Shown piece by piece: positions 10,774 to 41,854 of a stretch of DNA of 43,082 nt (position 1 is the first letter of the stretch; the number at the start of each line of letters is the position of its first letter). The stretch is taken from assembly GCA_028716905.1 (NCBI GenBank), contig JAQUOX010000002.1:1-43082 (forward strand), read 5' to 3'. The stretch comes from Minisyncoccota bacterium (lineage in GTDB: Bacteria; Patescibacteriota; Minisyncoccia; Minisyncoccales; Minisyncoccaceae). A model generated the notes under the pieces. It was given only the letters and a program-made list of their open reading frames with translations. It had not been told where the DNA came from and made no database searches. The position numbers and the translations under genes are program-made.

Positions 10774-11493
10774 CTACTTCAACAGTTCTTTATGATTTTT
10801 AGCCGATTGCCTTTCCTCCACTCCGTAATCGCTGACAACCAGCCCGTCTTTTATGTTTATGATTCTCTGGGCGTATTCAGCCGTGTATTTCTCGTGAGTA
10901 ACCAAAACAATGGTGTTGCCCCGGCTGTTCAAATCTTCCAAAAGCTTCATTACCTGAAGCCCTGATTTGGAATCCAGGTTGCCCGTGGGCTCGTCGGCGA
11001 ATATCACCTGCGGATTGTTAATCAGGGCCCGGGCAATGGCCACTCGTTGCTTTTCTCCGCCGGACAAGCGGTTAGGGGTGGAGTCCAGCCTATGGCTCAA
11101 TCCGACCTGCTCCAAAATTCCTTTGGCTTTTTTGATTCTTTCCTCGCCGGGAATATTGGTATATACCAAGGGAAGCATGACGTTCTCCAGAACCGAAGTT
11201 CTGTTTAAAAGATTGAAGGACTGGAAGACGAATCCGACCTTGTTGTTTCTCATCTCCGCCAGTTGGTCGTCGTTTAGCTGGCTGACGTCTTTCCCTTCAA
11301 AAAAATATTGGCCGGAGGTCGGCTTGTCCAAGAAACTTAAAATGTACATTAAGGTTGACTTGCCCGAACCGGAAGGCCCCATAATGGAAACAAACTCTCC
11401 TTTTTCAATGTCAAAGCTGATGCCGTTTAAAACCCTGGTTACCACGTCTTCAACCCAAAATTCTTTTTTTATGTCCCGGATGCTGATTAACAT
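10774..11493 (-). CDS. ABC transporter ATP-binding protein (MacB/LolD-like)
   Basis: Walker [10 protein letters not shown], signature LSGGEKQR, Walker B VIFADEPT. Confidence 0.9.
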
Positions 11494-13804: not shown

Positions 13805-14178
13805 AGCATCAAATCTTCTTTTTTGCCGTAATAGAACCTGAAGAAAATGGTCAAGAATATCATTGCCAAAAGTAAAAGACCCAGCAAATCTCCGATTGCC
13901 GTTTTTAAAGGATTAAAATAGTTTATCCACCACAAAAGTATTATTATCATCAAGGTGATTTGAAAAGAAGCGGCCAGGGCGGTATAGGAAATCTTTTTCG
14001 TTCTCTCGTCCTGCTCCGGACCGTTGCCGTATCTTTTATGTCTGATTAGCCCGCTTAAAAGCAAAACCAGGCCGGCCGTGAACATGACCGTGAAGCTGAA
14101 AGAATCAAACCTTGAGGCGAAACTGCCCAGCAAAAGAGCAATTCCTCCCACAATGCCGAACAAATGTCTTTTTTTCAT
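13801..14178 (-). CDS. DUF2178-like four-TM membrane protein
   Basis: Four TM helices and a DERTKKIS loop. The 4-nt overlap with the downstream XRE gene is the usual DUF2178/XRE pairing. Confidence 0.6.
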
Positions 14179-14263
14179 ATGACAATAATGATTATAATAA
14201 CTATTCCTATGTTATATCATTCTAACATTATTGTCAAGCACAATATTGCTAAATCGCTTAATT

Positions 14264-15061
14264 TTAGTGACCTTTTATTATAAAAATCCAAATGGAATAC
14301 CTAAAAAACTTTAAGAAATCTACTTTTTTTTTATAAATAATCTGTGGTATCGAGTAAAATTTATATTTTATGCCCTTCGGTACCAATTTTATTAATTCGA
14401 AAGCGGTTGGTAAATGCGCATATCCTTTAGGAGCTCCCATCACCTTATTTGATTCGTAAATTATATCTCCTATTAACAGGTCCTTATATGGTTTTCCCGT
14501 TAAATAACAATAAAACATGGATAAACATCTCCGAAAATCTCTTATAAGGTTTTTAACCAAAAAAGCGACGCCTCGTCCCAAATAAAATTTATTAAAGCTT
14601 TCTATAAATATTGTTCCTCCGTCTTTTGTCACTCTTAGCATTTCCTCAATTGCTTTTTTTCTTTTAGAAAATGTCGCTACCGCATTAATAGAAAAACGTG
14701 GACAAAAAATATAATCAAAAACATCGCCTTCAAAAGAAAGATTGGTCATGTCTTCGCATAAAAAACTGACATTTGTTATCCTAAGCTCTCGGGCTTTTTG
14801 CTTCGCGGCTTCAATTGCTTGGGAAGTAATATCAATACCGGTCACGTTAAAACCCATTTGAGCCGCGCCAATAGAAAATCTACCCGAACCGCAACCCAAA
14901 TCTAAAAGCCTCTTCCCCGTCTTCAGTTTACTCAATATTTTTTTCTCAGCGTGACGAAGTGGCTCTTTCGAATAATAAGAAATCTCTCCCGCATAATGAG
15001 AAATATTAAGTTTTTTTATGTTGTTGTAATAATTTTCTTGGGCTGCAAATTCTTCTTCCAT
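14264..15061 (-). CDS. Class I SAM-dependent methyltransferase (AT-rich island)
   Basis: Motif I LLDLGCGSGRFS, then GIDITSQAIEAAKQKA. Confidence 0.8.
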   Translation of the reverse strand: MEEEFAAQENYYNNIKKLNISHYAGEISYYSKEPLRHAEKKILSKLKTGKRLLDLGCGSGRFSIGAAQMGFNVTGIDITSQAIEAAKQKARELRITNVSFLCEDMTNLSFEGDVFDYIFCPRFSINAVATFSKRKKAIEEMLRVTKDGGTIFIESFNKFYLGRGVAFLVKNLIRDFRRCLSMFYCYLTGKPYKDLLIGDIIYESNKVMGAPKGYAHLPTAFELIKLVPKGIKYKFYSIPQIIYKKKVDFLKFFRYSIWIFIIKGH

Positions 15062-15158
15062 GCTTTTCTTTTAAAAACAATATAGTATTTTCAAATAAAA
15101 TTCAAGGTAATGATCCACATCTTAAATAGAGATAAACAGTTCCTCAAAAGTTAAACTA

Positions 15159-15186
15159 TTGACTTTTTTAATAACTATTCTATAAT
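15159..15186 (+). promoter_or_regulatory. Near-consensus promoter for the plus-strand island operon
   Basis: TTGACT (15159-15164), 16-nt spacer, TATAAT (15181-15186). A gggagagga RBS lies just before the ATG at 15230. Confidence 0.5.
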
Positions 15187-15229
15187 TGAAAAAGGCTATT
15201 TGCTCATTGAAAAAAGGGAGAGGATAGTA

Positions 15230-16216
15230 ATGTCTTGTGAAAAAACTTTAATTATTATTAAGCCAGATGGTTTAACCAAGAAGCTGGTCGGATTGATTGT
15301 TGAAAAAGTTTACCAGTACGGCCTGACAATAACGGGCTCGGAAAGAATATGTCTTTCTAAAGAACTGCTAGAGGAATTGTATTCAGAAATTAAAAATAAA
15401 GAATATTTTATCGAAGTGGTAAACTGGATAAGCTCTGCTCCGGTTCTTATATTAATAATAGAAGGGGTGGATGCTGTAAGTACTGTAAAGCAAAAGATAA
15501 TTGGAAAATATCCCAATGGCTTAAGGGGACGGTTTTCTGAAAATTTGATTAAAAACATTGCCCATGCTTCTGATTCCGTTGTTTCCGCCCAAAAAGAAAT
15601 ACGACTCATAGAGCCCATTCTTAAAAGAAACAAGGAGTTGAGCGAAAAAAAATTATCCAATAAAATAATTTTCGCCCTGACAGGCATGAGTGAGTGCGGT
15701 AAAAGCACTGTCGGCAAATATTTTGATTCGAAAGGAATACCTAGACTGAAAATTGTAAAGATTTTTGAAAAAGTCAAGGATACCTACAAACCAAATAAAG
15801 ATGTCAAAACTTTTACAAGTATTGAAGAAAAAAGAGACCCCTACGCTCTGTGGGATGCATTTATCGAACAGTTGTTGGCCGAAATGAACGAACGAAAAGT
15901 TAATGTCGCATCGATTGAAAGTCTTTATGGAGGTGGGCTGGGTTATTATCTAAAACAAAAGCTTGGAAACCATTTTCATATTATCTTTATTGAAGCATCC
16001 GAAGAAAAACGGATTAAACTACAAATGATTCGCGAAAACATTAATGATGCCAATAGGGCCAAACAACTATTACTCTCTAGAGATCGAATAAAAAATGATT
16101 CGGGCATCCCGCAATTAAAGGAAATCGCCGATGAAATTATTGACAATTCCGGTAGCATAAATCAACTTTACGAAAAGGTTGATAAAATCATACATAAATA
16201 TTTCGATCTATATTAA
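15230..16216 (+). CDS. Fusion protein: nucleoside-diphosphate kinase domain + P-loop nucleotide/nucleoside kinase-like domain
   Basis: The N-terminal half reads LIIIKPDG...YFIEVVNWISSAPVLILIIEG...GLRGRF...NIAHASDS, the NDK pattern with the catalytic His retained. The C-terminal half has Walker A GMSECGKST. Confidence 0.75.
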   Translation: MSCEKTLIIIKPDGLTKKLVGLIVEKVYQYGLTITGSERICLSKELLEELYSEIKNKEYFIEVVNWISSAPVLILIIEGVDAVSTVKQKIIGKYPNGLRGRFSENLIKNIAHASDSVVSAQKEIRLIEPILKRNKELSEKKLSNKIIFALTGMSECGKSTVGKYFDSKGIPRLKIVKIFEKVKDTYKPNKDVKTFTSIEEKRDPYALWDAFIEQLLAEMNERKVNVASIESLYGGGLGYYLKQKLGNHFHIIFIEASEEKRIKLQMIRENINDANRAKQLLLSRDRIKNDSGIPQLKEIADEIIDNSGSINQLYEKVDKIIHKYFDLY

Positions 16217-16256
16217 AGTCCCGTTTTACAAATAAGCGGGCTTATTTTTATAAATT

Positions 16257-17465
16257 ATGGCTATATCAAAAATTAAAAATAAATACGCATACCACAAATG
16301 CACAGGAGGAATTCTTTTGTATGGTCAAAATAAACTATTTACCCCCTTATTAAAGAAAAAAAGTGGGGAATGGGTAATTCCCAAAGGACACATAAATCGT
16401 GGTGAAAAAACATTAGAAGCAGCTGTTAGAGAAATTAAAGAAGAGCTTGGATTAAAAAATGTTGCGAAACTAGAAAAAATAACTAAATTAAGAACCATAA
16501 GCTATAAATTTAAATCAAGAGGCGTAGAAAACTTCAAAAGAGTTGATTTGTTCGCCTTCCGCACTCCTAAAAGGTATAAATTATTACCATTAGAAAAAGA
16601 AGGGTTCATAGATGCAAAATGGATGGAAATAGACCGAGCCTTAAAATTTTCTAAATATAAATCGGAGAGAGAGGCTATTAAAATGTCCTCGGATGCATTA
16701 ATTTATCAGGTTGCAAGAAAAAACTTGATAAGTATTTTTAAAAAAACTCTGAATGACAATCTTCTGGGGATAGTTTTGACTGGCAGCTTGCCGAACAATT
16801 ATTTTAAAAGCTGGTGGAGCGATGTTGACATTTTAATTATTGTTAAAAAAATAAACCTATCGATAAAGAAAAAAATAGCTCAAGCAAAAAATTATTTAGA
16901 AAAAAAATGGGGAAGACACGTTGGTATTAATGTTATAGATAAATTAAATGCTACAAATCCAATATTTCCCAACCTTTCCTTGGACGGAAAAACACTACAA
17001 ACCCTACTAGAGGCCAAAAAATATCCTCAAAATATTATTTTTATTAGTAAAAATATAAAACTTTATTGCCCCTCAAAAAAAGAAATAAAAAAATATAGTT
17101 TATCTAATGTTGGCATGCTATTATTAAAAAGCAGAAGAACTCTTACTGAAAAAAAGTTAGTAAATATTAATGATTTTAAAAACGCCACTTCTAAAGAAAT
17201 GCGGACTGCTAATATAATAACCAAGCTCGCAATTCAATATTTTTCTGGTCACACCTGTAAAAACAATAAAGAAGTACTAATAAAATCTCGTCAAGTGTTT
17301 AAGAATTTCGATTTTAGGGTTTTAGAGGAAAACTATGAAGCAATTGATAACTGGAAAAAATTAAATAAATTTGAATTAAAAAATATCCTTACAAGGACTA
17401 CTAATTATATTGAAAAATTTAGTCAATATGTTTTTAAAAAAGCGACAAAAATTAAAAATAATTAG
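16257..17465 (+). CDS. Fusion protein: Nudix hydrolase + Pol-beta-superfamily nucleotidyltransferase with a helical C-terminal region
   Basis: Nudix box GHINRGEKTLEAAVREIKEELGL. The NTase signature TGSLPNNYFKSWWSDVDILIIV fits GS...DxD. Confidence 0.75.
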   Translation: MAISKIKNKYAYHKCTGGILLYGQNKLFTPLLKKKSGEWVIPKGHINRGEKTLEAAVREIKEELGLKNVAKLEKITKLRTISYKFKSRGVENFKRVDLFAFRTPKRYKLLPLEKEGFIDAKWMEIDRALKFSKYKSEREAIKMSSDALIYQVARKNLISIFKKTLNDNLLGIVLTGSLPNNYFKSWWSDVDILIIVKKINLSIKKKIAQAKNYLEKKWGRHVGINVIDKLNATNPIFPNLSLDGKTLQTLLEAKKYPQNIIFISKNIKLYCPSKKEIKKYSLSNVGMLLLKSRRTLTEKKLVNINDFKNATSKEMRTANIITKLAIQYFSGHTCKNNKEVLIKSRQVFKNFDFRVLEENYEAIDNWKKLNKFELKNILTRTTNYIEKFSQYVFKKATKIKNN

Positions 17466-18540
17466 CATCTCCCTACCAAGAAAAAATCAAAAAATATTCA
17501 TTGGGCGAGATATACTCGATCTTTTTATTAACAAATCTTTGGTTCAAAAATATTTTAATTTTATTATCTTAATCGACTCTAATGTACTCTCTATTTATGG
17601 GGATGACATTGATAAAATTAAAAAGCTGTTAGATAATCCGAAAATTATTGCAATTGAACCCAACGAAAACAGCAAAACGTTAGATTTTTTAAATTTAGTT
17701 TTTGAAAAATGCTCTCAAAGTAAACTGTCAAGAAAAAGCTGTTTCATCGCTATCGGCGGTGGTATCGTAGGAGACATAACTGGTTTTATAGCATCTATAT
17801 ATATGAGAGGAATAGATTTTATATTTATTCCAACGACTCTAATGGCTCAAGCAGATACAATTATAGATAAGGTAGCTGTAAGCTATAAATTATTAAAAAA
17901 CATCGCTGGAAGCTTTTATTCGCCAGTTTTAACAATTTGCGACATAAACTTCTTACGGACACTAAATGATAAGGAAGTGGTAATGGGCTTTAGTGAAATC
18001 ATTAAACACGCCTTCATAGACTCTGAAAAACATTTTAATTTTATAAAATCAACAATTAAAAATTATAAACAAGACTTCCAGAAATATCCATGGGAAGAGA
18101 TTATATATAGGTCCTTAAAAATAAAAAGTAAACTCGCCCAAAAAGACCCCTTTGATGAATCTAATTACCATAAAGGATTAAGTTATGGACATACATTTGC
18201 TAATATTTTGGAGGGTATGTCTGGTTTTAAATTAAGACACGGAGAGGCGGTAGCTCTAGGAATGAAGTTTAGTGCGATAGTCAGTCAAAATATGGGAATA
18301 ATGTCTAAAAATCTATTTAACGAACAAAACAATATAATAAAAGAGGTTGGCCTGCCGACGACCATACCAAAATCGTTAAATAAAAAAACCGTCTTGGACC
18401 TTTTTAAAAAAGATAAAATTTCTGACAACGGAGAAATCAATTTGGTTATTTTAGAAAAATTAGGAAAATTTTCAATCCAGAAAAATATAAATCACAGAAT
18501 CATCGAAAAAGCATTAGAATTATTTAATACAATTCAATGA
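17428..18540 (+). CDS. 3-dehydroquinate synthase-like sugar-phosphate cyclase
   Basis: IAIGGGIVGDITGFIASIYMRGIDFIFIPTTLMAQAD, SEIIKHA, GHTF and HGEAVALG match the DHQS NAD- and metal-binding motifs. I chose the ATG at 17428. The track start at 17410 is a TTG. Confidence 0.8.
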   Translation: MFLKKRQKLKIISISLPRKNQKIFIGRDILDLFINKSLVQKYFNFIILIDSNVLSIYGDDIDKIKKLLDNPKIIAIEPNENSKTLDFLNLVFEKCSQSKLSRKSCFIAIGGGIVGDITGFIASIYMRGIDFIFIPTTLMAQADTIIDKVAVSYKLLKNIAGSFYSPVLTICDINFLRTLNDKEVVMGFSEIIKHAFIDSEKHFNFIKSTIKNYKQDFQKYPWEEIIYRSLKIKSKLAQKDPFDESNYHKGLSYGHTFANILEGMSGFKLRHGEAVALGMKFSAIVSQNMGIMSKNLFNEQNNIIKEVGLPTTIPKSLNKKTVLDLFKKDKISDNGEINLVILEKLGKFSIQKNINHRIIEKALELFNTIQ

Positions 18541-19467
18541 TTGAACTAAATCGCAGGGATTTTTAATTATAACTTGGTAACATTTTATATTTTTAGCTAT
18601 GAAATCGATAGTTCCTACGGGAAAAACGTCTTTTTCAATTTTATTTATTAGCTTATTATTATAAGTAATTATCCGACCAGAATCAGCTTTTTCAATAAAA
18701 TTCATTCTATCAAAATCCGGATAAAAAAACTTAAGCAGATGGGATGTTAGTGCAACCCTTATAGAGTTCTTAGAATTAATTGTATCTAATTTTTTACAGT
18801 TATTATTTTTGTCTTTACTAAAATAAACGAAAACAAAACAATCGAGTTTGTGGTGTTTTTTGATATTAAATATTTGTTGAGGCATTAAGAAAATTCCCGC
18901 TTTAGTTCTAATAGAAATTTTTTCTGAGATATTTATTTTGTGTTTTTTTTCTAAATGATTCCTGACCTCTGGTCTAATGTGCAAAGGAATGAATGGATAA
19001 GAAAAAATGTGCATCGTTTTAATATCTAAAAAACAAAACTCATCGCCAATTATCGTATTTGATATTAATGATAATTCTATAGCCGAAAGCGTCTTGCCGA
19101 CGCTTAAGCCGTCATCGGCAAAACAAAAAGCTTTATTATTGTATACTGAAGTAGAGCCATGGACTAAAAAAATATTGTTTTTCGCGGAATGTAAACCAAT
19201 AAATCTAAATAGTGCTTGCAGGACGCCCATTAAATTAAAATAATCGCGAGGGCTATCTGTTTTATCAACACCTATTGATAAATTTTTGCAATCTGATGAT
19301 ATTGTTATATAATTTTTATCGGCCTTTGCGATTCTTATATTTATTTGTGGCTTTGTTTGTTTTTCTTCGCAAACATCAAAATTATTAAAAGTTTCTATAA
19401 TTAAATTAAGGATGTCTTCTACCTCTGCCTTGATGGGAATGTTTGCTATTTTTATAAAAGTTTTCAT
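18520..19467 (-). CDS. Hypothetical protein with an HprK-related-kinase-like P-loop segment
   Basis: LVHGSTSVYNNKAFCFADDGLSVGKTLSAIEL resembles the lHa.av...g.a.ll.G.sG.GKSTl core of HPr-kinase-related proteins. The loop is one residue shorter than canonical. The CDS call is firmer than the function. Confidence 0.5.
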   Translation of the reverse strand: MKTFIKIANIPIKAEVEDILNLIIETFNNFDVCEEKQTKPQINIRIAKADKNYITISSDCKNLSIGVDKTDSPRDYFNLMGVLQALFRFIGLHSAKNNIFLVHGSTSVYNNKAFCFADDGLSVGKTLSAIELSLISNTIIGDEFCFLDIKTMHIFSYPFIPLHIRPEVRNHLEKKHKINISEKISIRTKAGIFLMPQQIFNIKKHHKLDCFVFVYFSKDKNNNCKKLDTINSKNSIRVALTSHLLKFFYPDFDRMNFIEKADSGRIITYNNKLINKIEKDVFPVGTIDFIAKNIKCYQVIIKNPCDLVQSLNCIK

Positions 19468-19582
19468 GAAGCTTTTTCATATTAAACCATTTTATTTAAA
19501 AATAGTCAAAGCCACAACTAAAAACGTAAAGTCAAAAAACCTAATTGAAAAGCAATTAGCCTCAAAGCCCCAAACGATGCAA

Positions 19583-34195: not shown

Positions 34196-34229
34196 TCTCT
34201 TGGAACCCCTCACTGGTTGGCTCCGAACG

Positions 34230-34532
34230 CTGAACGAAATCCGAACTTTTTTCAAAGAAAATCCCGAACAAGAATGAGGTGCGTTTCCGCTTGCCTCCGC
34301 TCCGCTACGGCAAACCAAAACAGAAAAATCTTCTCTACATTTTTTAATTTTTTCGCGCACAATTTTTTCTTTTAAAAGGAAAAGAAAATTTTTCTGTTTT
34401 GCGTTTCTCTTATTCAGAGAAAAGCGGAAACGCTCTATTCTTAATCGCAAAAGGGCAAAAATTCCTTCCCCCAGACCCCCTTCCTTTTTGCCCTTTTGCT
34501 TTTCGGGCTTCGCCCGATTTTTTTGCGGGGCT
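34230..34532. repeat. Left copy of a perfect 303-bp inverted repeat (partner at 41518..41820)
   Basis: The reverse complement of 34230-34532 equals 41518-41820 at every base, checked line by line. Confidence 0.95.
34447..34524 (+). terminator. Tandem-hairpin intrinsic terminator facing into the cassette (inside the left repeat)
   Basis: Plus strand: a 15-bp perfect stem (34447-34461 with 34485-34499), then a tcgggc-ttc-gcccga hairpin (34503-34517), then T7 (34518-34524). Confidence 0.5.
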
Positions 34533-34557: not shown

Positions 34558-35958
34558 TTAAGACTTTTTCTTGTTTTTTGAATAATCTATCTCTGGAAAT
34601 TTTACAATTTTACCACGACTTTCCAAGATTGCCTTCCTGCATTCCTTTGCAAATTTTTTATCACTATTTTCCCTAACATATCTTACCACTTCAAACAGAT
34701 CAGAAGTTCTAACAAGAATCGCATTTAATCTTTCGGCATTCTTTATACATTTATCTGTAAATTGTTCCTCTCTTTTTTCCGGTCGAATAACTCTAAAACC
34801 ATTTCCAAACAAAATGCCTATTGCAGGATCAGACACTTCTTCTTTTTGTAAATCTTCCTGTATGTTTGATTCAAGCTGTCTAAATTTATCAATGTTTATC
34901 GCACCATTATCCTTACCCTCTGCTTCCCCGATATACCTTTCACCCTCGGGCGATACAATAATCTGATCAATTTCTAAACTGCCATCGTCATAATTTTCAG
35001 CTTTATAACCTAAAATTTCTAGGGCTTTGATAATAGCGTTCTCTAGTGGTTTGCCTTTTTCGTAAATCAGATTTTTCAACTCCATTTCTTTGTGTAAGGA
35101 ATCTAACAAAGTATTTTTTTCTGTGGTGAAAGTTTCTATTTTTTTGGAAATATTATCTATTTTCTTTTTAAGCTCTGTTTCAAGTTTCAATCTATATTCT
35201 TTTTGTGCGACCCAATCTGGCGGCGGTGAAGTTTCAACAGATCCACGCAATGCATTATCAATATCAACCAATACTTGAATTAAACGTTTGCCGAACTTCA
35301 CTGCCTCATCAGTCCAAAACGATTCTTCTTTCTCGTATTTTGTAAATTTTTCTGGATATCTAACTGGGGGCAATAAGACTAGATTTCCTTTTCCTACCCT
35401 GAACAAACCGCCTACAGGCTTATTTCCTGTTTTGGTAAAAAACAAAGGGGTTTCAATTTTGCCGTCTATGTAAGATTCGTATTTAATGCGTTCCTTAAAC
35501 TCACTCCAAAAGGTTGTAAATATACCATTATTATTAAATTTTAACTCCGTTCCTTCCTTCGGGATTAAACCGGGAATATCTACTGGCAAAAATTCATAAT
35601 TATTGTACGAAGAAACCAAATTTGTAACTCTCGTATTTCTGCCAGTACCAGAATATTGTTTTTGTCCAGTGTGAACAAAAACTTCCTCATATTGACCCAT
35701 AAAAACAAGGACTGTCTTCCCGTCTTGTAGTGCCGTTGAAATTTCAGAGTGCCAATGTCTCGTATCCTCTTTCAAACGAAAAGATTCATTCTCGCTAAAA
35801 GAAGGTTTACCCTGATAACTGTCATAGTAGCTATAGTTAGAAAAATCTGGTTCAAAAACAACAATGTCTGCGTCTAACAAAGATTGAGAAGATGTATATG
35901 GTTTGTAGTCGTCAGCGTAACCGGGTATATCGAAACCCACTGAGATAATTTTTTTCAT
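34558..35958 (-). CDS. Uncharacterised 466-aa protein: unknown N-terminal domain, central coiled coil, C-terminal PD-(D/E)xK-like region. Last gene of the restriction-type operon.
   Basis: Its ATG overlaps the Res stop as ATGA (35955-35958). The C-terminus LEIDQIIVSPEGERYIGEAEGKD fits D-x15-ExK. Coiled coil: KLETELKKKIDNISKKIETFTTEKNTLLDSLHKEMELKN. Confidence 0.7.
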   Translation of the reverse strand: MKKIISVGFDIPGYADDYKPYTSSQSLLDADIVVFEPDFSNYSYYDSYQGKPSFSENESFRLKEDTRHWHSEISTALQDGKTVLVFMGQYEEVFVHTGQKQYSGTGRNTRVTNLVSSYNNYEFLPVDIPGLIPKEGTELKFNNNGIFTTFWSEFKERIKYESYIDGKIETPLFFTKTGNKPVGGLFRVGKGNLVLLPPVRYPEKFTKYEKEESFWTDEAVKFGKRLIQVLVDIDNALRGSVETSPPPDWVAQKEYRLKLETELKKKIDNISKKIETFTTEKNTLLDSLHKEMELKNLIYEKGKPLENAIIKALEILGYKAENYDDGSLEIDQIIVSPEGERYIGEAEGKDNGAINIDKFRQLESNIQEDLQKEEVSDPAIGILFGNGFRVIRPEKREEQFTDKCIKNAERLNAILVRTSDLFEVVRYVRENSDKKFAKECRKAILESRGKIVKFPEIDYSKNKKKS

Positions 35959-38660
35959 TTTACAATATCAAAAATATTTTTAGGATCATCAAGTACCTTA
36001 AACACCCACTTCCCAAAATTTCCATTTTCATTTACCGCTTCAACCCATTCCTTCGCCGCTTGCCATTTTGCTTTATCTTGCTCCTTCGTCTGGCCTTTAA
36101 CCTCTAAAATAATGTGTCTATTATCCTTAAATTTCACAATATAGTCGGGGTAGTAAGTGTGTGTTTGGCCTTGCCACAAATAATAAATTTCAAATCCAAG
36201 ATGATCATTTTTTACCCACGAAATTAAATCTTTTATTCTGTTCCGCTCCAATTCAAAAGCCAAGCTACCCTCCCAACCGCTATCAACGACGATATGGCTA
36301 ATTTGGCTTTTATTAACTGGCTGTGTTTTCTTGCTTGTGTACCACGTCATCGCTGTTGCCGTACCTCGCTTCGGACGCACAGGATCAAGAATGGCAAGCG
36401 GCGCATCCTTGCTTGAACTTCTGATAAAATTTCCGATGTGATTCACAATCGCCTGAATATTTAAGGCGATCATAATATTTTTTAATTTTTCAGAACCGGC
36501 AAAAACAGGAACTTTCATCAGCAATTTATCCGATTCCAAAAACTTATCAATAATCTGTATCAATTGCCCAATATGGCTTCCGGGATCGCCTTTCCAATTT
36601 TTGCCAAACTGCTCGTGTAAACGAACTGCCGCTTGAAGTTTTGATTTTTGCAACCTGTGTTCCTCAGCGAGCTTATCAAGGTTAATTTCGCTAATTTGGT
36701 CAAACTTCGGACGACCTTCAATTGTAGGAGCAACTTCTACGATTGTTGGTGAATCTTCCGGCGACAAAATCAGTTTTTCCAACTTATCCCATTCTAAATC
36801 CAAAAAGTAATTCAGCTTATAATCGACACGCAAAACATGTGGCCAATCTATTTTCAAATCCTTTCTATCTTGTAGAGGCTCTATTTTTGTTTTCGGCTTT
36901 TCCGGTCCGGGCGTTTTTTCCTTGCCTTCTGCTGGCAAGAAAGTGAACGGCACGCCAAATACCGTGACATATTCGGGATCATAAAGATTAGTTTCGGGAT
37001 TAATATCGTAAGAAATCCTGCGCAAACCTCGGCCGACAACCTGCTCACAAAGGAGTTGGCTCGTAAAGGCTCGTAATCCCAAAATATGAGTAACTGTTCT
37101 TGCGTCCCACCCTTCGGACAACATATTAACGCCAATAACACACTGGACTTGTTCTCCAGCCTTTTCTTCTTTTCCAACCGTATTAAATTTTTCTCGTTCA
37201 AGCTCAACCAGTTCTCTTTTGGATTTATCCAGCTTTTCTTCTTCGTCAGCTTCAATTTTATCTAAAGCGTCTTGGTCTATGCGAATCAACTTCGTCTTAT
37301 CCGCCAATTCATCAACAGAGAAAAATCCGTTTACCAAAGAGTATTCTAATCTCGCCGCCGTTTCCGTTCGGTTAGAAATCATAATCATAACAGGTGGCGT
37401 TTTTCTCTCTTGTTTTTGCCAATCGTCTTTTGATTGAAGCCAATCCGCCCCCAAGATATTAACCGCGTTTCTGACAAGATCGGGCAGACCCTCGTGTTTT
37501 TCTGCACGGCGATTCAAGTCCTCTTTGACATGCTCGTAAATATGGAAAAATCTTGACTTCAAATCTTTATCCAATTTTGAATCATCTCTCACCGCAACTT
37601 TTGGCGTTTTCACCAAACCACTCTCAATTGCATCGTTTAGCCCAAAGTCACTGACAATCCAAGTAAACAACTGCTCACCTTGATTATTGCGACCTGTCGG
37701 CTTGAACGGCGTTGCAGTTAAGTCATACGCTCTCAAAACACCCCGCGCACGACTGATTCTGTCAATTCCACTCACCCAAATTGTCGCTTTTTCTTTTTCG
37801 CTCGCATCTTCTTCTCCAGTTGGCCCATGGCAGTGGTGCGCTTCGTCATTGATAATTAAAATGTTTGTGGCGTTTCCGAAATCAGGAAGAACACGCCGCA
37901 CAAATGCCTCTTCGCTTTCTGGCCCCTTTTTTATTACTTTCGGTCCATAGTTTTCATTGTATGGCGCAAGTGTATGCCAGTTTGTTACCTCAATTTTTGC
38001 CTGCAAAAGCTCTTGCCACATTGCAGAATCAACCAAAATAAAACTTTGATAAAAATTATCGGGATTGTCTGGCAGTAAAACTTGCAAACGATCCCGCACC
38101 GTAAGACCCGGCGCAATAATTAATATATGTTTTGAAAATCTTGCGTCTTTAGGGTTGGCGATTTTATTTAACGCCTGCCAAGCAATAAGCATAGCCATTA
38201 CTACCGTCTTTCCCGTTCCTGTTGCTAATTTCAAACACTGCCTTTCCCATTCGCCACTATCAGCCGGAATATCTATACCCTGTTTTTCAGCAGTGCTCGC
38301 CTCTGTAAGCCAAATTGCCGTTTCTACGGCTTCAAATTGACACCAAAACGGCTGAAGTTCTCTCTGCGACTTATCATTCCAAAAATCAAGCAGCCGTTTC
38401 GTAACGCCGGTAACATTGGGATAACCCTTTTCCCTCCATTCTTTAACTCTCGGCCTGATTTTATTAACTAAAGGAATCTCAATAAATTCGCCGGGATCCT
38501 CGCTATCCCCACGATTGCGCGCCGTAGCCCGCCAATAGCCTGACTTTCTCCGTCCGGGCTTTCTTTCAAAACTTTGCGATTCGCGAATATAGAGCCAATG
38601 TTCTTTTGGTTCCTCGTAGGGATTGTTAATTATAAGTTGGTCAATTGATTTACTAGACAT
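35955..38660 (-). CDS. res: Type III restriction enzyme Res-like subunit (SF2 DEAH helicase + C-terminal PD-(D/E)xK nuclease)
   Basis: Helicase motifs ATGTGKT, INDEAHH, LTATP and VVGRGLRR. C-terminal YPDYIV...IILEVKG nuclease motif. The N-terminal INNPYEEPKEHW is typical of this Res family. Confidence 0.85.
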   Translation of the reverse strand: MSSKSIDQLIINNPYEEPKEHWLYIRESQSFERKPGRRKSGYWRATARNRGDSEDPGEFIEIPLVNKIRPRVKEWREKGYPNVTGVTKRLLDFWNDKSQRELQPFWCQFEAVETAIWLTEASTAEKQGIDIPADSGEWERQCLKLATGTGKTVVMAMLIAWQALNKIANPKDARFSKHILIIAPGLTVRDRLQVLLPDNPDNFYQSFILVDSAMWQELLQAKIEVTNWHTLAPYNENYGPKVIKKGPESEEAFVRRVLPDFGNATNILIINDEAHHCHGPTGEEDASEKEKATIWVSGIDRISRARGVLRAYDLTATPFKPTGRNNQGEQLFTWIVSDFGLNDAIESGLVKTPKVAVRDDSKLDKDLKSRFFHIYEHVKEDLNRRAEKHEGLPDLVRNAVNILGADWLQSKDDWQKQERKTPPVMIMISNRTETAARLEYSLVNGFFSVDELADKTKLIRIDQDALDKIEADEEEKLDKSKRELVELEREKFNTVGKEEKAGEQVQCVIGVNMLSEGWDARTVTHILGLRAFTSQLLCEQVVGRGLRRISYDINPETNLYDPEYVTVFGVPFTFLPAEGKEKTPGPEKPKTKIEPLQDRKDLKIDWPHVLRVDYKLNYFLDLEWDKLEKLILSPEDSPTIVEVAPTIEGRPKFDQISEINLDKLAEEHRLQKSKLQAAVRLHEQFGKNWKGDPGSHIGQLIQIIDKFLESDKLLMKVPVFAGSEKLKNIMIALNIQAIVNHIGNFIRSSSKDAPLAILDPVRPKRGTATAMTWYTSKKTQPVNKSQISHIVVDSGWEGSLAFELERNRIKDLISWVKNDHLGFEIYYLWQGQTHTYYPDYIVKFKDNRHIILEVKGQTKEQDKAKWQAAKEWVEAVNENGNFGKWVFKVLDDPKNIFDIVK

Positions 38661-38662
38661 AA

Positions 38663-41134
38663 TTATTCAAGTTTTTTTATTACAAAGGATTCAATTCCTC
38701 TGTTATCTATAATTTTAACAGCGATTTTCTTTTCTTCCCCGGCTTCAAATGGCAATGATTCAACGCCAGTAAATGACTCTATTAATTCCTCATCAATTTC
38801 ACCATTGAGAGCTTTGGCTAATTTCGTCCAGTCACGCTTGCTGTCTTTCATAGGGAAAAATACTTGGTCGGGCAGTAAACTTCGCTCATCATAGTCAGTA
38901 TCCAAAAACCACATCGCAATATGCGCATTGCTCTTTGACTCAATTTCTCCGCTAATTGGATTGTAATAATCAAAACCATTAACTCGGATTTTATACTTTT
39001 CGCCTCTTTCTTTAATAACCTCAACATCTGGCTGGCCGATGAGCCAATAGCTTTGATTTGACGATCGTTTCTTTCGCAAATCAGCCGTGAGTAAGTCCAC
39101 ACTCATTTGTGCTTTAAGAATCTGCACGCCGGACCAATCAATTTGATCAATGTCTTTTGCCGCCTCCGGATCAAAGTGGAAGGCCGCAAAAATTACAAAA
39201 TCAGGTTTCTCTTTTATTTCGCGAGCTTCTTTAACGGCTTCTTCAACTTGCCTCTGTTCCATTGGTCCAAAATCAGGTCCAAAACTGATGTATGCTTTTT
39301 TAGTTTTATCTTTTTCTATAATCTCGCCTTTGGCATGCAAAAATTTTGTCGCAAGCATTGGCTCAATAACTGAAAATTCAATTTTCTTTCCGCCAGTTGT
39401 GCGTATACCGGTTGTTTTAAGCTCGTCGCGATAAAGCGTTTGATTTCCAGTCTCGCCGGTTTGCGATAACTCTCTGCCACCACCTTCAACTTTTGGCTCT
39501 TTCTCGTCAAACGGCTTGACTCGTAAACTGGGCACAGCTTCAACGGTAAATGGTCCCGTTACTCTTATTTTATTCTTTTCAATTTTGGGTATGTCGTATA
39601 AATTTTCTGATTTTGCTTCGGATTCTTTTGTAAAAGTACCCACAGAAATGTGAGGAATTTCTTTGTATATCAATCCACTTCTTATTCCTTCTTCCTTATG
39701 TGCCAACTCATAATATTCAAAGTTAGCGATCATCAATCTCTGCTTCGCAAGGGTTATTGCAACTCGTGATGTGTCGCAAGTTATCCAACGACGACCCCAC
39801 TTCTCTGCAACAAATGCGCTAGTACCCCCGCCACAAGTAGGATCTAAAATTAAATCACTCGGATCTGTTGTCATGAGCATGCATCGCTCAATAACTTTGT
39901 CTTGTGTTTCCACCACATATGACTTTCCTGAAGCCGCAGTCGTATCAAACCACATATTAGTTAATCGTGAGGCTGGGAAATCTTTGTAGTAAGAAATGAA
40001 ATACAAACTATTCCCCCTAGCGGTAATTCTCCCTAACGCTTCGAGTTTTTTCATCCCTTCAAGATTTGTTTTCCATGACTTATTTGAGCGCGGCTTGTAT
40101 ACTTTTCCTTTAAATTCGTAGTCGTAAACACATGAGGGAGTAAGTCCCGAAGAGTTAAGATCACCTAATGCGATCCTATCTTCCAAAGGAGAATCGTCTT
40201 TGGCTTTCTCAATTTTTTTGTTTACTAGAATATACGGATAATTCTTTTTTGATTCCTCATTTTTCTCGACAAATAATTCCCTGAATTTCATTTGTTTTTT
40301 ATCTTTGGCGTACCAAATAATAATGTCATACAAATGAGCCAAGTCGTTTGAACCTAAAACGCCCCTTGTTTTATACGATACCATTGCTACAAAATTATCC
40401 TTATTAAATATTTCCTCCATAACTTCTCTAACATGGTGAATATTTTCTTCATTTATCTGCACAAAAACACTACCACTTTCGTGGAGCAGTTCTTTAGCAA
40501 GCAATAATCTGTCTCGCAAGTGTGTAAGATAGCTATGTACCCCTAATTCCCAAGTATCGCGGAACGCCTGAATCATTTCTGGCTCTGCTGGAATGTCCTC
40601 ATCTCGATCTTTAACATCTTTTTTATTTACAAACGGCTGAAAGTTTGAGTTGTATTTAATGCCGTAGGGCGGATCAATATAAACCATCTGCACTTTGCCC
40701 GCCATGCCTTCTTTGTTGAGTAAGCTATTCATTACTAAAAGCGAATCCCCGGAAATGAGACGGTTTGTCCAGTCCTGCTCGTGTTTATAAAATTCAATTG
40801 CCTTGTTTAGCGGCGGCTCATTATCCGGCTGATCAAAAAGAGAAACCTGTTTTGGCCCGGTATCTTTTTTCAAAAACGATTTGATTATCCTTTTTGGATC
40901 AATTCGTTCATGAATATGCAAGCTGATATTTTGCACATCAAACTCCATACCTTCTTTTTTCCCAGCCCAGCTCAAATATGGGTCAATATGAGGATCGTGT
41001 GCGTATTTTTGCCGGCCATCAAATTTATCGGTTGCACTAGAAACTAACCCTACCGGCGGGATATTCTTTCGTTTCGCTCCCTTATGGGCGTATGTTTTAA
41101 CCTCTATTTTTTTGTTGGCTTTTTTTCTTGGCAT
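38663..41134 (-). CDS. mod: Beta-class N6-adenine/N4-cytosine DNA methyltransferase, Type III Mod-like, with a long C-terminal extension
   Basis: Motif IV IDPPYG precedes motif I LDPTCGGGTSAFVAEKWGRRWITCD, which is the beta-class order. Only 2 nt separate it from res. Confidence 0.85.
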   Translation of the reverse strand: MPRKKANKKIEVKTYAHKGAKRKNIPPVGLVSSATDKFDGRQKYAHDPHIDPYLSWAGKKEGMEFDVQNISLHIHERIDPKRIIKSFLKKDTGPKQVSLFDQPDNEPPLNKAIEFYKHEQDWTNRLISGDSLLVMNSLLNKEGMAGKVQMVYIDPPYGIKYNSNFQPFVNKKDVKDRDEDIPAEPEMIQAFRDTWELGVHSYLTHLRDRLLLAKELLHESGSVFVQINEENIHHVREVMEEIFNKDNFVAMVSYKTRGVLGSNDLAHLYDIIIWYAKDKKQMKFRELFVEKNEESKKNYPYILVNKKIEKAKDDSPLEDRIALGDLNSSGLTPSCVYDYEFKGKVYKPRSNKSWKTNLEGMKKLEALGRITARGNSLYFISYYKDFPASRLTNMWFDTTAASGKSYVVETQDKVIERCMLMTTDPSDLILDPTCGGGTSAFVAEKWGRRWITCDTSRVAITLAKQRLMIANFEYYELAHKEEGIRSGLIYKEIPHISVGTFTKESEAKSENLYDIPKIEKNKIRVTGPFTVEAVPSLRVKPFDEKEPKVEGGGRELSQTGETGNQTLYRDELKTTGIRTTGGKKIEFSVIEPMLATKFLHAKGEIIEKDKTKKAYISFGPDFGPMEQRQVEEAVKEAREIKEKPDFVIFAAFHFDPEAAKDIDQIDWSGVQILKAQMSVDLLTADLRKKRSSNQSYWLIGQPDVEVIKERGEKYKIRVNGFDYYNPISGEIESKSNAHIAMWFLDTDYDERSLLPDQVFFPMKDSKRDWTKLAKALNGEIDEELIESFTGVESLPFEAGEEKKIAVKIIDNRGIESFVIKKLE

Positions 41135-41150
41135 ATTTACCTTGGCATAT

Positions 41151-41354
41151 TTACTTTATTAAATCATCAACACTTACTTCAAGTGCCTTAGCAAGCTTGG
41201 TTAGTGTTTCAATGGTCGGATTTTTATTTACTCCGGATTCAATACGAATAACCGTGTTCAATGATAAATCAGCAAGCCGAGCCACTCTTTCTTGGGAGTA
41301 GCCCTTCTGTGCTCGTAGTTTCTTAAAATTGTTAGCTATTTTGTTGTTTGACAT
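41151..41354 (-). CDS. XRE-family HTH protein (possible controller of the restriction-type operon)
   Basis: LRAQKGYSQERVARLADLSLNTVIRIESGVNKNPTIETLTKLAKAL. It sits 16 nt upstream of mod. Confidence 0.85.
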   Translation of the reverse strand: MSNNKIANNFKKLRAQKGYSQERVARLADLSLNTVIRIESGVNKNPTIETLTKLAKALEVSVDDLIK

Positions 41355-41517
41355 AAGATTACTTGCAATATACCATTAAAAGATATAAACTAAATGATAG
41401 GACATATTCATTAGCTATTTTTATGGTATATCATTTTATCACATTTGGCAACCTTTCAGGGAGTTCCCCGTTGCCCGCGCACGGGAGTGGTGGGGCAAGG
41501 GCAACTATAATTATAAA

Positions 41518-41820
41518 AGCCCCGCAAAAAAATCGGGCGAAGCCCGAAAAGCAAAAGGGCAAAAAGGAAGGGGGTCTGGGGGAAGGAATTTTTGCCCTTT
41601 TGCGATTAAGAATAGAGCGTTTCCGCTTTTCTCTGAATAAGAGAAACGCAAAACAGAAAAATTTTCTTTTCCTTTTAAAAGAAAAAATTGTGCGCGAAAA
41701 AATTAAAAAATGTAGAGAAGATTTTTCTGTTTTGGTTTGCCGTAGCGGAGCGGAGGCAAGCGGAAACGCACCTCATTCTTGTTCGGGATTTTCTTTGAAA
41801 AAAGTTCGGATTTCGTTCAG
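41518..41820. repeat. Right copy of the perfect 303-bp inverted repeat (partner at 34230..34532)
   Basis: Exact reverse complement of the left copy. Confidence 0.95.
41526..41603 (-). terminator. Tandem-hairpin intrinsic terminator facing into the cassette (inside the right repeat)
   Basis: Mirror image of 34447..34524. Read on the minus strand: the 15-bp stem hairpin, then the 6-bp GC hairpin, then T7. Confidence 0.5.
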
Positions 41821-41854
41821 AATACGGAGCCAAATTGTATGTTCGGCGTTTGTT

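Follow-up and report, generated by a model that had tools for sequence, protein, structure and literature searches.

A predicted nuclease of an unannotated family forms the constant tail of a cargo-swapping restriction–modification cassette

What is a third gene doing at the end of a two-gene restriction–modification (R-M) operon? The question is raised by a stretch of 43,082 nucleotides from a Minisyncoccota bacterium (assembly GCA_028716905.1, contig JAQUOX010000002.1, positions 1 to 43,082), hereafter the window, in which the genes of a Type III-like methyltransferase (Mod) and its restriction partner (Res) are followed by an open reading frame (ORF) at 34558..35958 on the minus strand. Its 466-residue product is here called X, and all coordinates given without a locus number are those of the 43-kb window. 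A first-pass annotation of this DNA proposed that X is a second nuclease-like effector, which would make Mod, Res and X a three-component defence system. Sequence comparison and structure prediction, the evidence base throughout, lead us to a different answer. X would be an autonomous endonuclease, probably a defensive one, and the constant tail of a cassette with exchangeable cargo, a statement that we hold, taken as a whole, with slightly better than even confidence.

X is encoded by the last gene in a minus-strand string of four, which begins with a 67-residue Xre/C-protein-like helix-turn-helix (HTH) protein (41151..41354) and continues with the 823-residue Mod (38663..41134) and the 901-residue Res (35955..38660). 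The ATG start codon of the X gene (35958-35956) overlaps the TGA stop codon of the Res gene (35957-35955) as ATGA at 35955-35958, so the ORF that had been described as starting inside the Res stop codon is present as claimed. Co-translation of X with Res, also claimed, is upheld as almost certain, and the same can be said of its co-transcription with both Mod and Res.

Such an arrangement invites the thought that the pair needs X, but the pair is complete without it, because Res bears a C-terminal PD-ExK nuclease domain of its own. Res belongs to the BPTD_3080 family of restriction endonucleases (NCBIfam NF046055, 994.8 bits against a cut-off of 800, residues 7-897), and Pfam divides it into a superfamily 2 helicase (ResIII) and a C-terminal TnsA-like domain (Tn7_TnsA-like_N, PF08722, 3.4e-6) with the motif PD...EVK. 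Mod, an N6/N4 DNA methyltransferase, matches Pfam N6_N4_Mtase (7e-26) and PADLOC MTase_III (3e-145) and has DPPY and FxGxG motifs. The two form a bona fide pair of the Type III/BPTD_3080 kind, and X lies outside the conserved gene set of that kind, since close and distant Mod-Res operons alike are without it.

Co-occurrence tells the same story. A survey of X, Mod and Res found no conserved linkage of X with this Mod/Res family: among 120 loci with relatives of X (45 from species-representative genomes, 63 from metagenomes and 12 around the closest homologues), neither this Mod nor this Res family occurs within 8-10 kb, and X is absent from all 59 plasmids that carry a BPTD_3080-like Res. Two of these plasmids are annotated; Res is followed by an opposite-strand integrase gene in one and by a DUF6883 gene in the other. 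The nearest homologues of Res, at 95, 92 and 87% identity, are each part of an operon that consists of Mod and Res only, and the HTH gene, X and the flanking repeat described below are missing from all three of their loci. X is therefore, with high confidence, not a dedicated subunit of Mod-Res. The nuclease-like character proposed in the first-pass annotation survives, as shown next, while its place as a dedicated third component does not.

What kind of protein, then, is X? That it belongs to no recognised family, as the first-pass annotation had suspected of its N-terminal part, is borne out by profile searches. The window protein has no Pfam, NCBIfam or PADLOC match at E ≤ 1, none of 59 aligned relatives matches a Pfam family (coiled-coil noise only), and the best PADLOC match among those 59 has an E-value of 2.9e-4, in one member only. 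Sequence searches of the PDB with a single X sequence and with a profile gave nothing meaningful. Searches of the literature turned up no system in which an X protein is named, and a query for BPTD_3080 returned nothing. The family is large: at least 1118 homologues are found at E ≤ 1e-3 in a 90%-clustered database, all unnamed or 'hypothetical', and clustering at 50% leaves 2914 representatives, 714 of them below 1e-30. Nearly all of these representatives are about 460 residues long (440-500) and have a single architecture.

The family is also dispersed. Each of the 45 species genomes gave one X locus, and X stands alone on plasmids of Enterobacter and Salmonella as well as in many metagenome-assembled genomes (MAGs). 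The X-carrying plasmids in our plasmid survey number seven, all from Enterobacter, where the gene adjoins a tyrosine integrase gene; the homologue on an Enterobacter hormaechei plasmid is WP_049126869.1. With the Enterobacter homologue as query, no match was found in E. coli genomes. Phage genomes gave no tblastn match to X and IMG/VR holds only three X loci, so X is not a phage gene. Many hosts are labelled Patescibacteria or other small-genome MAGs, although the taxonomic labels of MAGs are unreliable.

An AlphaFold2 model of X, built on 59 sequences, has a mean predicted local distance difference test score (pLDDT) of 90.9 and consists of an alpha/beta N-terminal domain, a long helix and a C-terminal domain. 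The last of these (residues 301-466, 34561..35058) is the best conserved. Over residues ~301-457, modelled with a pLDDT of about 95, Foldseek matches it with a probability of 0.99-1.0 to FokI (2fok), HindIII (2e52/3a4k) and NucS/EndoMS (5gke/2vld). E306, D331, E345 and Q361 do not vary among the 59 sequences, and conservation reaches at least 90% at E347 and K349; the codons of the predicted catalytic residues D331, E345 and K349 lie at 34968-34966, 34926-34924 and 34914-34912. The D-x15-E-x-K arrangement that had been pointed out in this region (EIDQIIV...GEAEGK) holds D331, E345, E347 and K349, and the guess that the C terminus is a PD-(D/E)xK nuclease gains support from both the Foldseek matches and the conserved residues, as the predicted core fold and the D...(D/E)xK motif are those of that superfamily. 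Median identity follows the same division of the protein, with 67% in the C-terminal domain, 55% in the N-terminal domain and 40% in the linker. X is quite probably a nuclease.

The remaining parts of X are harder to name. The N-terminal domain (residues 1-245, 35224..35958), modelled alone, reaches a pLDDT of 90.9 and a predicted template modelling score of 0.86. It had been called Rossmann- or flavodoxin-like on the basis of two peptides, both of which are present (DGKTVLVFMG at residues 79-88 and GKGNLVLLPP at 189-198). An alpha/beta fold is indeed what the model shows, and the label is acceptable if loose, for the best structural matches are to the class I glutamine-amidotransferase-like fold, namely the middle domain of GH42-type glycosidases, STM3548 (2gk3) and GatD. 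These matches agree with one another but are weak (E ~1e-3), with low template modelling (TM) scores of 0.3-0.41, and X has no conserved Cys-His-Glu triad. Since no Cys or His in residues 1-245 is invariant or nearly so, this domain probably serves as a sensor or for oligomerisation and not as an enzyme. Between the two domains lies a Pro-rich hinge (TSPPPDW) followed by a long helix (35059..35223), the least conserved part of X. Of the coiled coil that had been predicted here, the helix stands, as a single one of 36 residues (258-293), and the sequence support for coiling amounts to weak compositional coiled-coil matches.

A CARF-like reading of the N-terminal domain was considered and dropped. 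With the whole chain as query, the top Foldseek match is VC1899 (1xmx; E 6e-4, probability 0.72, TM 0.19), and the PADLOC model 'CARF3--CARF' gives weak matches in 13 of the 59 relatives (best E 0.003). A fold search with the N-terminal domain only has no CARF protein in its top 50, for which reason CARF is a lead for X and not a classification. X resembles CARF-nuclease effectors such as VC1899 and Card1/Can2 in placing an alpha/beta domain before a PD-(D/E)xK domain; it differs from them in that a CARF-fold sensor is not recovered and that its annotated contexts contain no CRISPR or cyclase genes.

How, then, did X come to follow Res? The operon is a mosaic. The closest relatives of X (82, 78 and 74% identity) come last in operons ordered HTH, methyltransferase, DpnII-like restriction endonuclease, methyltransferase, X, with junctions as tight or overlapping as those in the window. 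At the DNA level, two such comparisons complement each other (loci of the survey are cited by number). Against L050 and L051, the window is homologous only at 41522-41142, the promoter region and HTH gene, and at 35958-34453, which is X with ~100 nt downstream. Against L125-L127, which are Res-only loci, it is homologous only from 41138, the start of Mod, to ~35957, the Res stop codon. From the two comparisons together, one breakpoint can be placed to within a few bases of where the HTH gene stops, and the other precisely on the X start codon. The HTH protein (Pfam HTH_3, 4e-16) is 72-78% identical to those heading DpnII-like and EcoRI-like cassettes. In the comparison with L125-L127, the Mod gene otherwise shows ~80-84% DNA identity by blastn, and a segment of ~500 nt (39920-40405) is unaligned. 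This segment is likely a swapped target-recognition region, which would give this Mod a different specificity.

The joints themselves are plain. Cassette genes are packed as TAA-N(1-7)-ATG throughout, and beyond this packing no conserved recombination-site-like sequence was found at the HTH/cargo and cargo/X joints. At the HTH/Mod joint, where frame meets cargo, 14 nt are duplicated in tandem (GTAAATATGCCAAG x2, 41154-41127 on the minus strand), creating a mini-ORF of three codons (MPR*). The duplication is found in no relative compared and may have been left behind by capture of the cargo.

The genes held between HTH and X in other cassettes are diverse. They include DpnII-like systems, an EcoRI-type methyltransferase with a GmrSD-HNH protein, an R-M pair with an OLD-family ATPase-nuclease, a methyltransferase with a different ResIII helicase, and an HNH homing-type nuclease. 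As a separate observation, L010 (429-1671) and L017 (405-1624) are HTH-headed units in which a RibD_C or HNH-like protein, combined with a His_Phos_1 phosphatase, replaces the R-M system and X is still last.

Outside the HTH-headed clade, X is often solo or among defence genes, and its neighbours there include MvaI/BcnI R-M with an Mrr-type enzyme and an NsnB-like ATPase, and elsewhere XhoI R-M, DruA and a Dcm-Vsr-HNH-SNF2 island. Among 88 unique loci with at least 600 bp upstream, 68 have a same-strand gene upstream of X, at a gap of 25 nt or less in 21 of the 68. Where 2.5 kb or more of upstream sequence was available (68 loci), a DNA methyltransferase was detected in the upstream gene string of 15, a count to be read as a lower bound because detection depended on seed sequences. 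BLAST clustering of the ORFs neighbouring X revealed no conserved neighbour, and outside the HTH-headed clade there is no conserved small ORF upstream of X. Linkage of X to R-M and other defence genes thus does exist, in a loose and promiscuous form that spans many types. The active site predicted for X is conserved in every context, including loci without R-M genes, HTH or repeats, and because X is in this way an independent module, an autonomous endonuclease is the reading that we favour.

The cassette also has a frame. A 316-nt inverted repeat, 99% complementary between its arms, brackets the whole operon: one arm (34217..34532) lies downstream of X with its inner end 26 nt from the stop codon, and the other (41518..41833) lies upstream of the HTH gene. 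The arm has no further copy in the window. Within each arm are an imperfect palindrome, a hairpin with a 15-bp stem and the loop CCCCCAGACCCCC, and a strong inward-facing terminator-like hairpin with a T-run. On the X side the hairpin is at 34447-34499 and the terminator-like hairpin at 34503-34517 (34447..34517 together); the mirror copy is at 41533-41603, with its inward-facing terminator at 41547-41533. The arm terminators would stop outside read-through into the cassette from both sides. An assembly artefact was considered as the source of the repeat and dropped, as the arms differ at three positions and the same layout is found in independent assemblies.

The order repeat, HTH, cargo, X, repeat recurs in 11 other loci (L007, L010, L015, L050, L082, L083, L084, L090, L096, L097 and L099) with arms of 25-214 nt, often clipped exactly at contig ends, as expected where a repeat is longer than the assembler's k-mer. 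For 14 HTH-headed units, the window among them, both flanks are covered by sequence, and the repeat is present in 12. L046 and L047 keep HTH and X and have no arm upstream of the HTH gene. In seven loci, no more than 0-28 nt separate the arm from the X stop codon. A C-rich loop motif, CCCC(CC)A[CG]ACCCC(CC), stands beside X in at least 15 loci, and this motif and the arm modules are common to loci whose X is only 44-64% identical to that of the window. In L015 (1-51 / 2623-2738), L083 (1-116 / 2798-2913) and L014 (1898-1948), which come from different assemblies, the arms are 100% identical, the X genes are only 85% identical, and the cargo is not the same, being an EamA transporter in one case and an HNH nuclease in another. 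Rfam has no match to the cassette or its arms.

No comparable repeat was found in loci that are not HTH-headed, where only 26- and 30-nt pairs were seen, in L028 and L070, both probable chance matches. The pair in L028 (9905-9930 / 11437-11462, 26 nt, 96%) surrounds X alone, 68 nt upstream and 63 nt downstream of it, and could be a minimal unit as well as a chance match. Large serine recombinase genes adjoin three cassettes (L051 5115-7190, L090 146-1809 and L049 12245-13840). In L051 and L090 the recombinase gene has flanking inverted repeats of its own (132-306 nt), giving tandem repeat-bounded units.

At its promoter end the operon looks like those governed by control proteins. In C-protein-controlled R-M operons, of which C.PvuII and C.AhdI are examples, a small HTH gene regulates the operon. 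The window likewise has an Xre-type HTH_3 gene first, with matches to PADLOC 'control protein' models, and upstream of it (41368..41451) an operator-like palindrome (TATACCAT...ATGGTATA, arms 41368-41388 / 41411-41431) that overlaps a promoter-like site on the minus strand (41451-41423, TTGCCA-17-TACCAT). It differs from such operons in that the same type of HTH also heads cassettes with non-R-M cargo, and its operator is putative.

Taken together, these features suggest how the locus may work. The compact 7.6-kb cassette consists of an arm, a C-protein-like HTH gene, exchangeable cargo, X as the constant 3' gene, and a second arm, the cargo in the window being a self-sufficient Mod-Res pair captured from a two-gene lineage. 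An HTH-controlled promoter would yield one tightly packed, translationally coupled transcript with X last, shielded from outside transcription by the terminators in both arms. X itself would be a single-chain endonuclease whose N-terminal domain is responsible for sensing or multimerisation, whose helix brings two chains together and whose FokI/NucS-like domain cleaves DNA. It would act on DNA alone, as an additional layer of defence beside whatever cargo travels with it, much as restriction nucleases that join a sensor to a cleavage domain do. A role in defence is, in our view, somewhat likelier than not.

Several points weigh against this account. PADLOC-DB v2, which includes Shedu, Hachiman, Gabija, Old and PDC candidates, has no significant match to X. 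The fold assignment of the N-terminal domain on the model is weak, both domains are acidic (isoelectric points of 5.4-5.8), and X has no evident DNA-recognition domain. A defensive role is not obvious for some of the cargo, namely the EamA transporter, an LD-carboxypeptidase that comes with a kinase-like protein, and RibD_C plus His_Phos_1. The arms are better conserved than the X gene (100 against 85% in L015 and L083), which pure defence leaves unexplained. Finally, X loci were retrieved with two peptide patterns per collection, and many of the contigs are short.

Two alternatives are improbable to about the same degree. In the first, X is a generic restriction helper that depends on a partner nuclease and works on the products of that nuclease, for instance degrading restriction breaks or blocking their repair in hosts without RecBCD/AddAB-type enzymes. 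This would explain why X is indifferent to the type of R-M system; X comes after nuclease cargo as varied as Type II, Type III-like, GmrSD-HNH, HNH, OLD and Mrr, it is always last in the operon at very short gaps, and many of its hosts carry the small-genome labels mentioned above. The helper role fits poorly with the ~20 of 88 X loci in which the upstream neighbour is divergent, with the many solo copies, those on Enterobacter plasmids included, and with the cassettes that have no recognisable nuclease or methyltransferase (EamA; LD-carboxypeptidase).

In the second, X is a nuclease for the mobility or maintenance of the cassette. Perhaps together with the HTH protein, it would recognise the arms or an uninterrupted palindromic target and promote homing, insertion or arm homogenisation, with R-M genes as passengers. 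This alternative best explains the arms, since long near-perfect repeats abut X (at the 0-28 nt already given), are 99-100% identical within an element and between elements are more conserved than the X gene; arms, HTH and X also co-occur while cargo, HTH and X re-assort, and most cassettes have no other mobility gene. Transposase-less R-M units with long inverted repeats are, moreover, on record (PMC2853133). Against it, target-site duplications are lacking outside the arms in the window, L090, L096 and L099, each genome yielded one copy, most members of the X family have no flanking inverted repeat, and L046 and L047 combine HTH and X with no arm upstream of the HTH gene. No empty site turned up, though no search aimed at empty sites was made, and the large serine recombinases beside three cassettes could supply mobility instead. 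A related and broader claim is that the units of arm, HTH, cargo, X and arm, which are mostly on contigs labelled Patescibacteria or similar, are an undescribed class of compact transposase-less cassette, with X as the core enzyme for homing, insertion, arm homogenisation or element maintenance and everything between the HTH stop codon and the X start codon as passengers. This joint claim, too, we consider doubtful.

Less likely again is an addiction module, in which the HTH protein as repressor or antitoxin and X as a toxic nuclease would bracket and stabilise the cargo. The HTH gene is present even with non-R-M cargo, the operator-like palindrome overlaps the promoter, and the arm terminators would prevent unscheduled expression. 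The members of a type II toxin-antitoxin pair are adjacent and co-vary, but HTH and X are separated by 0.7-5.2 kb of cargo, HTH proteins range from 35 to 78% identity across relatives whose X are all ~45% identical, and most X relatives have neither an HTH partner nor a conserved small upstream ORF. That X is the obligate third subunit or effector of the Type III-like pair, as the ATGA overlap and the shared operon might suggest, is very unlikely and largely refuted by its absence from Mod-Res loci and theirs from X loci, by the nuclease domain of Res and by the closest X relatives, which come after DpnII-like Type II systems.

To return to X as an autonomous and probably defensive endonuclease, comparison with known proteins shows where it is familiar and where it is not. 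With the FokI cleavage domain, HindIII and the C-terminal domain of NucS/EndoMS, X shares a predicted fold and an E...D...ExExK...Q motif; it has no detectable sequence similarity to them and a different N-terminal partner domain. Shedu SduA is a single-chain protein that joins a sensor to a cleavage-domain nuclease and has no methyltransferase. X is analogous to Type IV enzymes and END nucleases (PMC12191111) in joining a variable N-terminal domain to a restriction-type nuclease and in being found sometimes alone and among defence genes. Its N-terminal domain sets it apart from Type IV, END and Shedu proteins, being none of iEndoIII, SRA, DUF4263 or a recognised DNA-modification reader.

The cassette has a precedent as well. 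Furuta, Abe and Kobayashi described in 2010 R-M units with long flanking inverted repeats, no transposase and a mechanism then unknown (PMC2853133), and the window unit is likewise compact, without a transposase and bracketed by long inverted repeats. It departs from those units in its near-perfect, terminator-bearing arms (here 100-316 nt), in the absence of target duplication, and in the recurrent pairing of HTH and X around exchangeable cargo, which is not in the 2010 description. The cassette is in this sense a new variant of the recorded inverted-repeat-flanked R-M units, and X is an unnamed variant of the sensor-plus-PD-(D/E)xK nuclease.

Elsewhere in the window, ~14000-19500 is a low-GC island (28-34% against 42-48% in its flanks). 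Its genes, for an NDK-domain fusion, a protein with NUDIX and nucleotidyltransferase parts, a dehydroquinate-synthase-like protein and an S-adenosylmethionine-dependent (SAM) methyltransferase, may form a cluster for the modification of nucleotides or sugars that arrived by horizontal transfer.

What the locus means reaches beyond one operon. X joins a confidently predicted restriction-type nuclease domain to a domain that is not known from defence proteins, in a family with thousands of members in many phyla that has neither a name, nor a Pfam or NCBIfam model, nor a PADLOC entry. The mosaic shows how R-M systems can be repackaged, with one regulatory head and one nuclease tail, enclosed by insulating inverted repeats, carrying Type II, Type III-like and other cargo between breakpoints of codon-level precision. 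If X defends alone, it would be a new single-gene system that can be tested in enterobacteria. If it serves the cassette instead, it could account for the R-M units of the 2010 description, with their flanking inverted repeats and no transposase.

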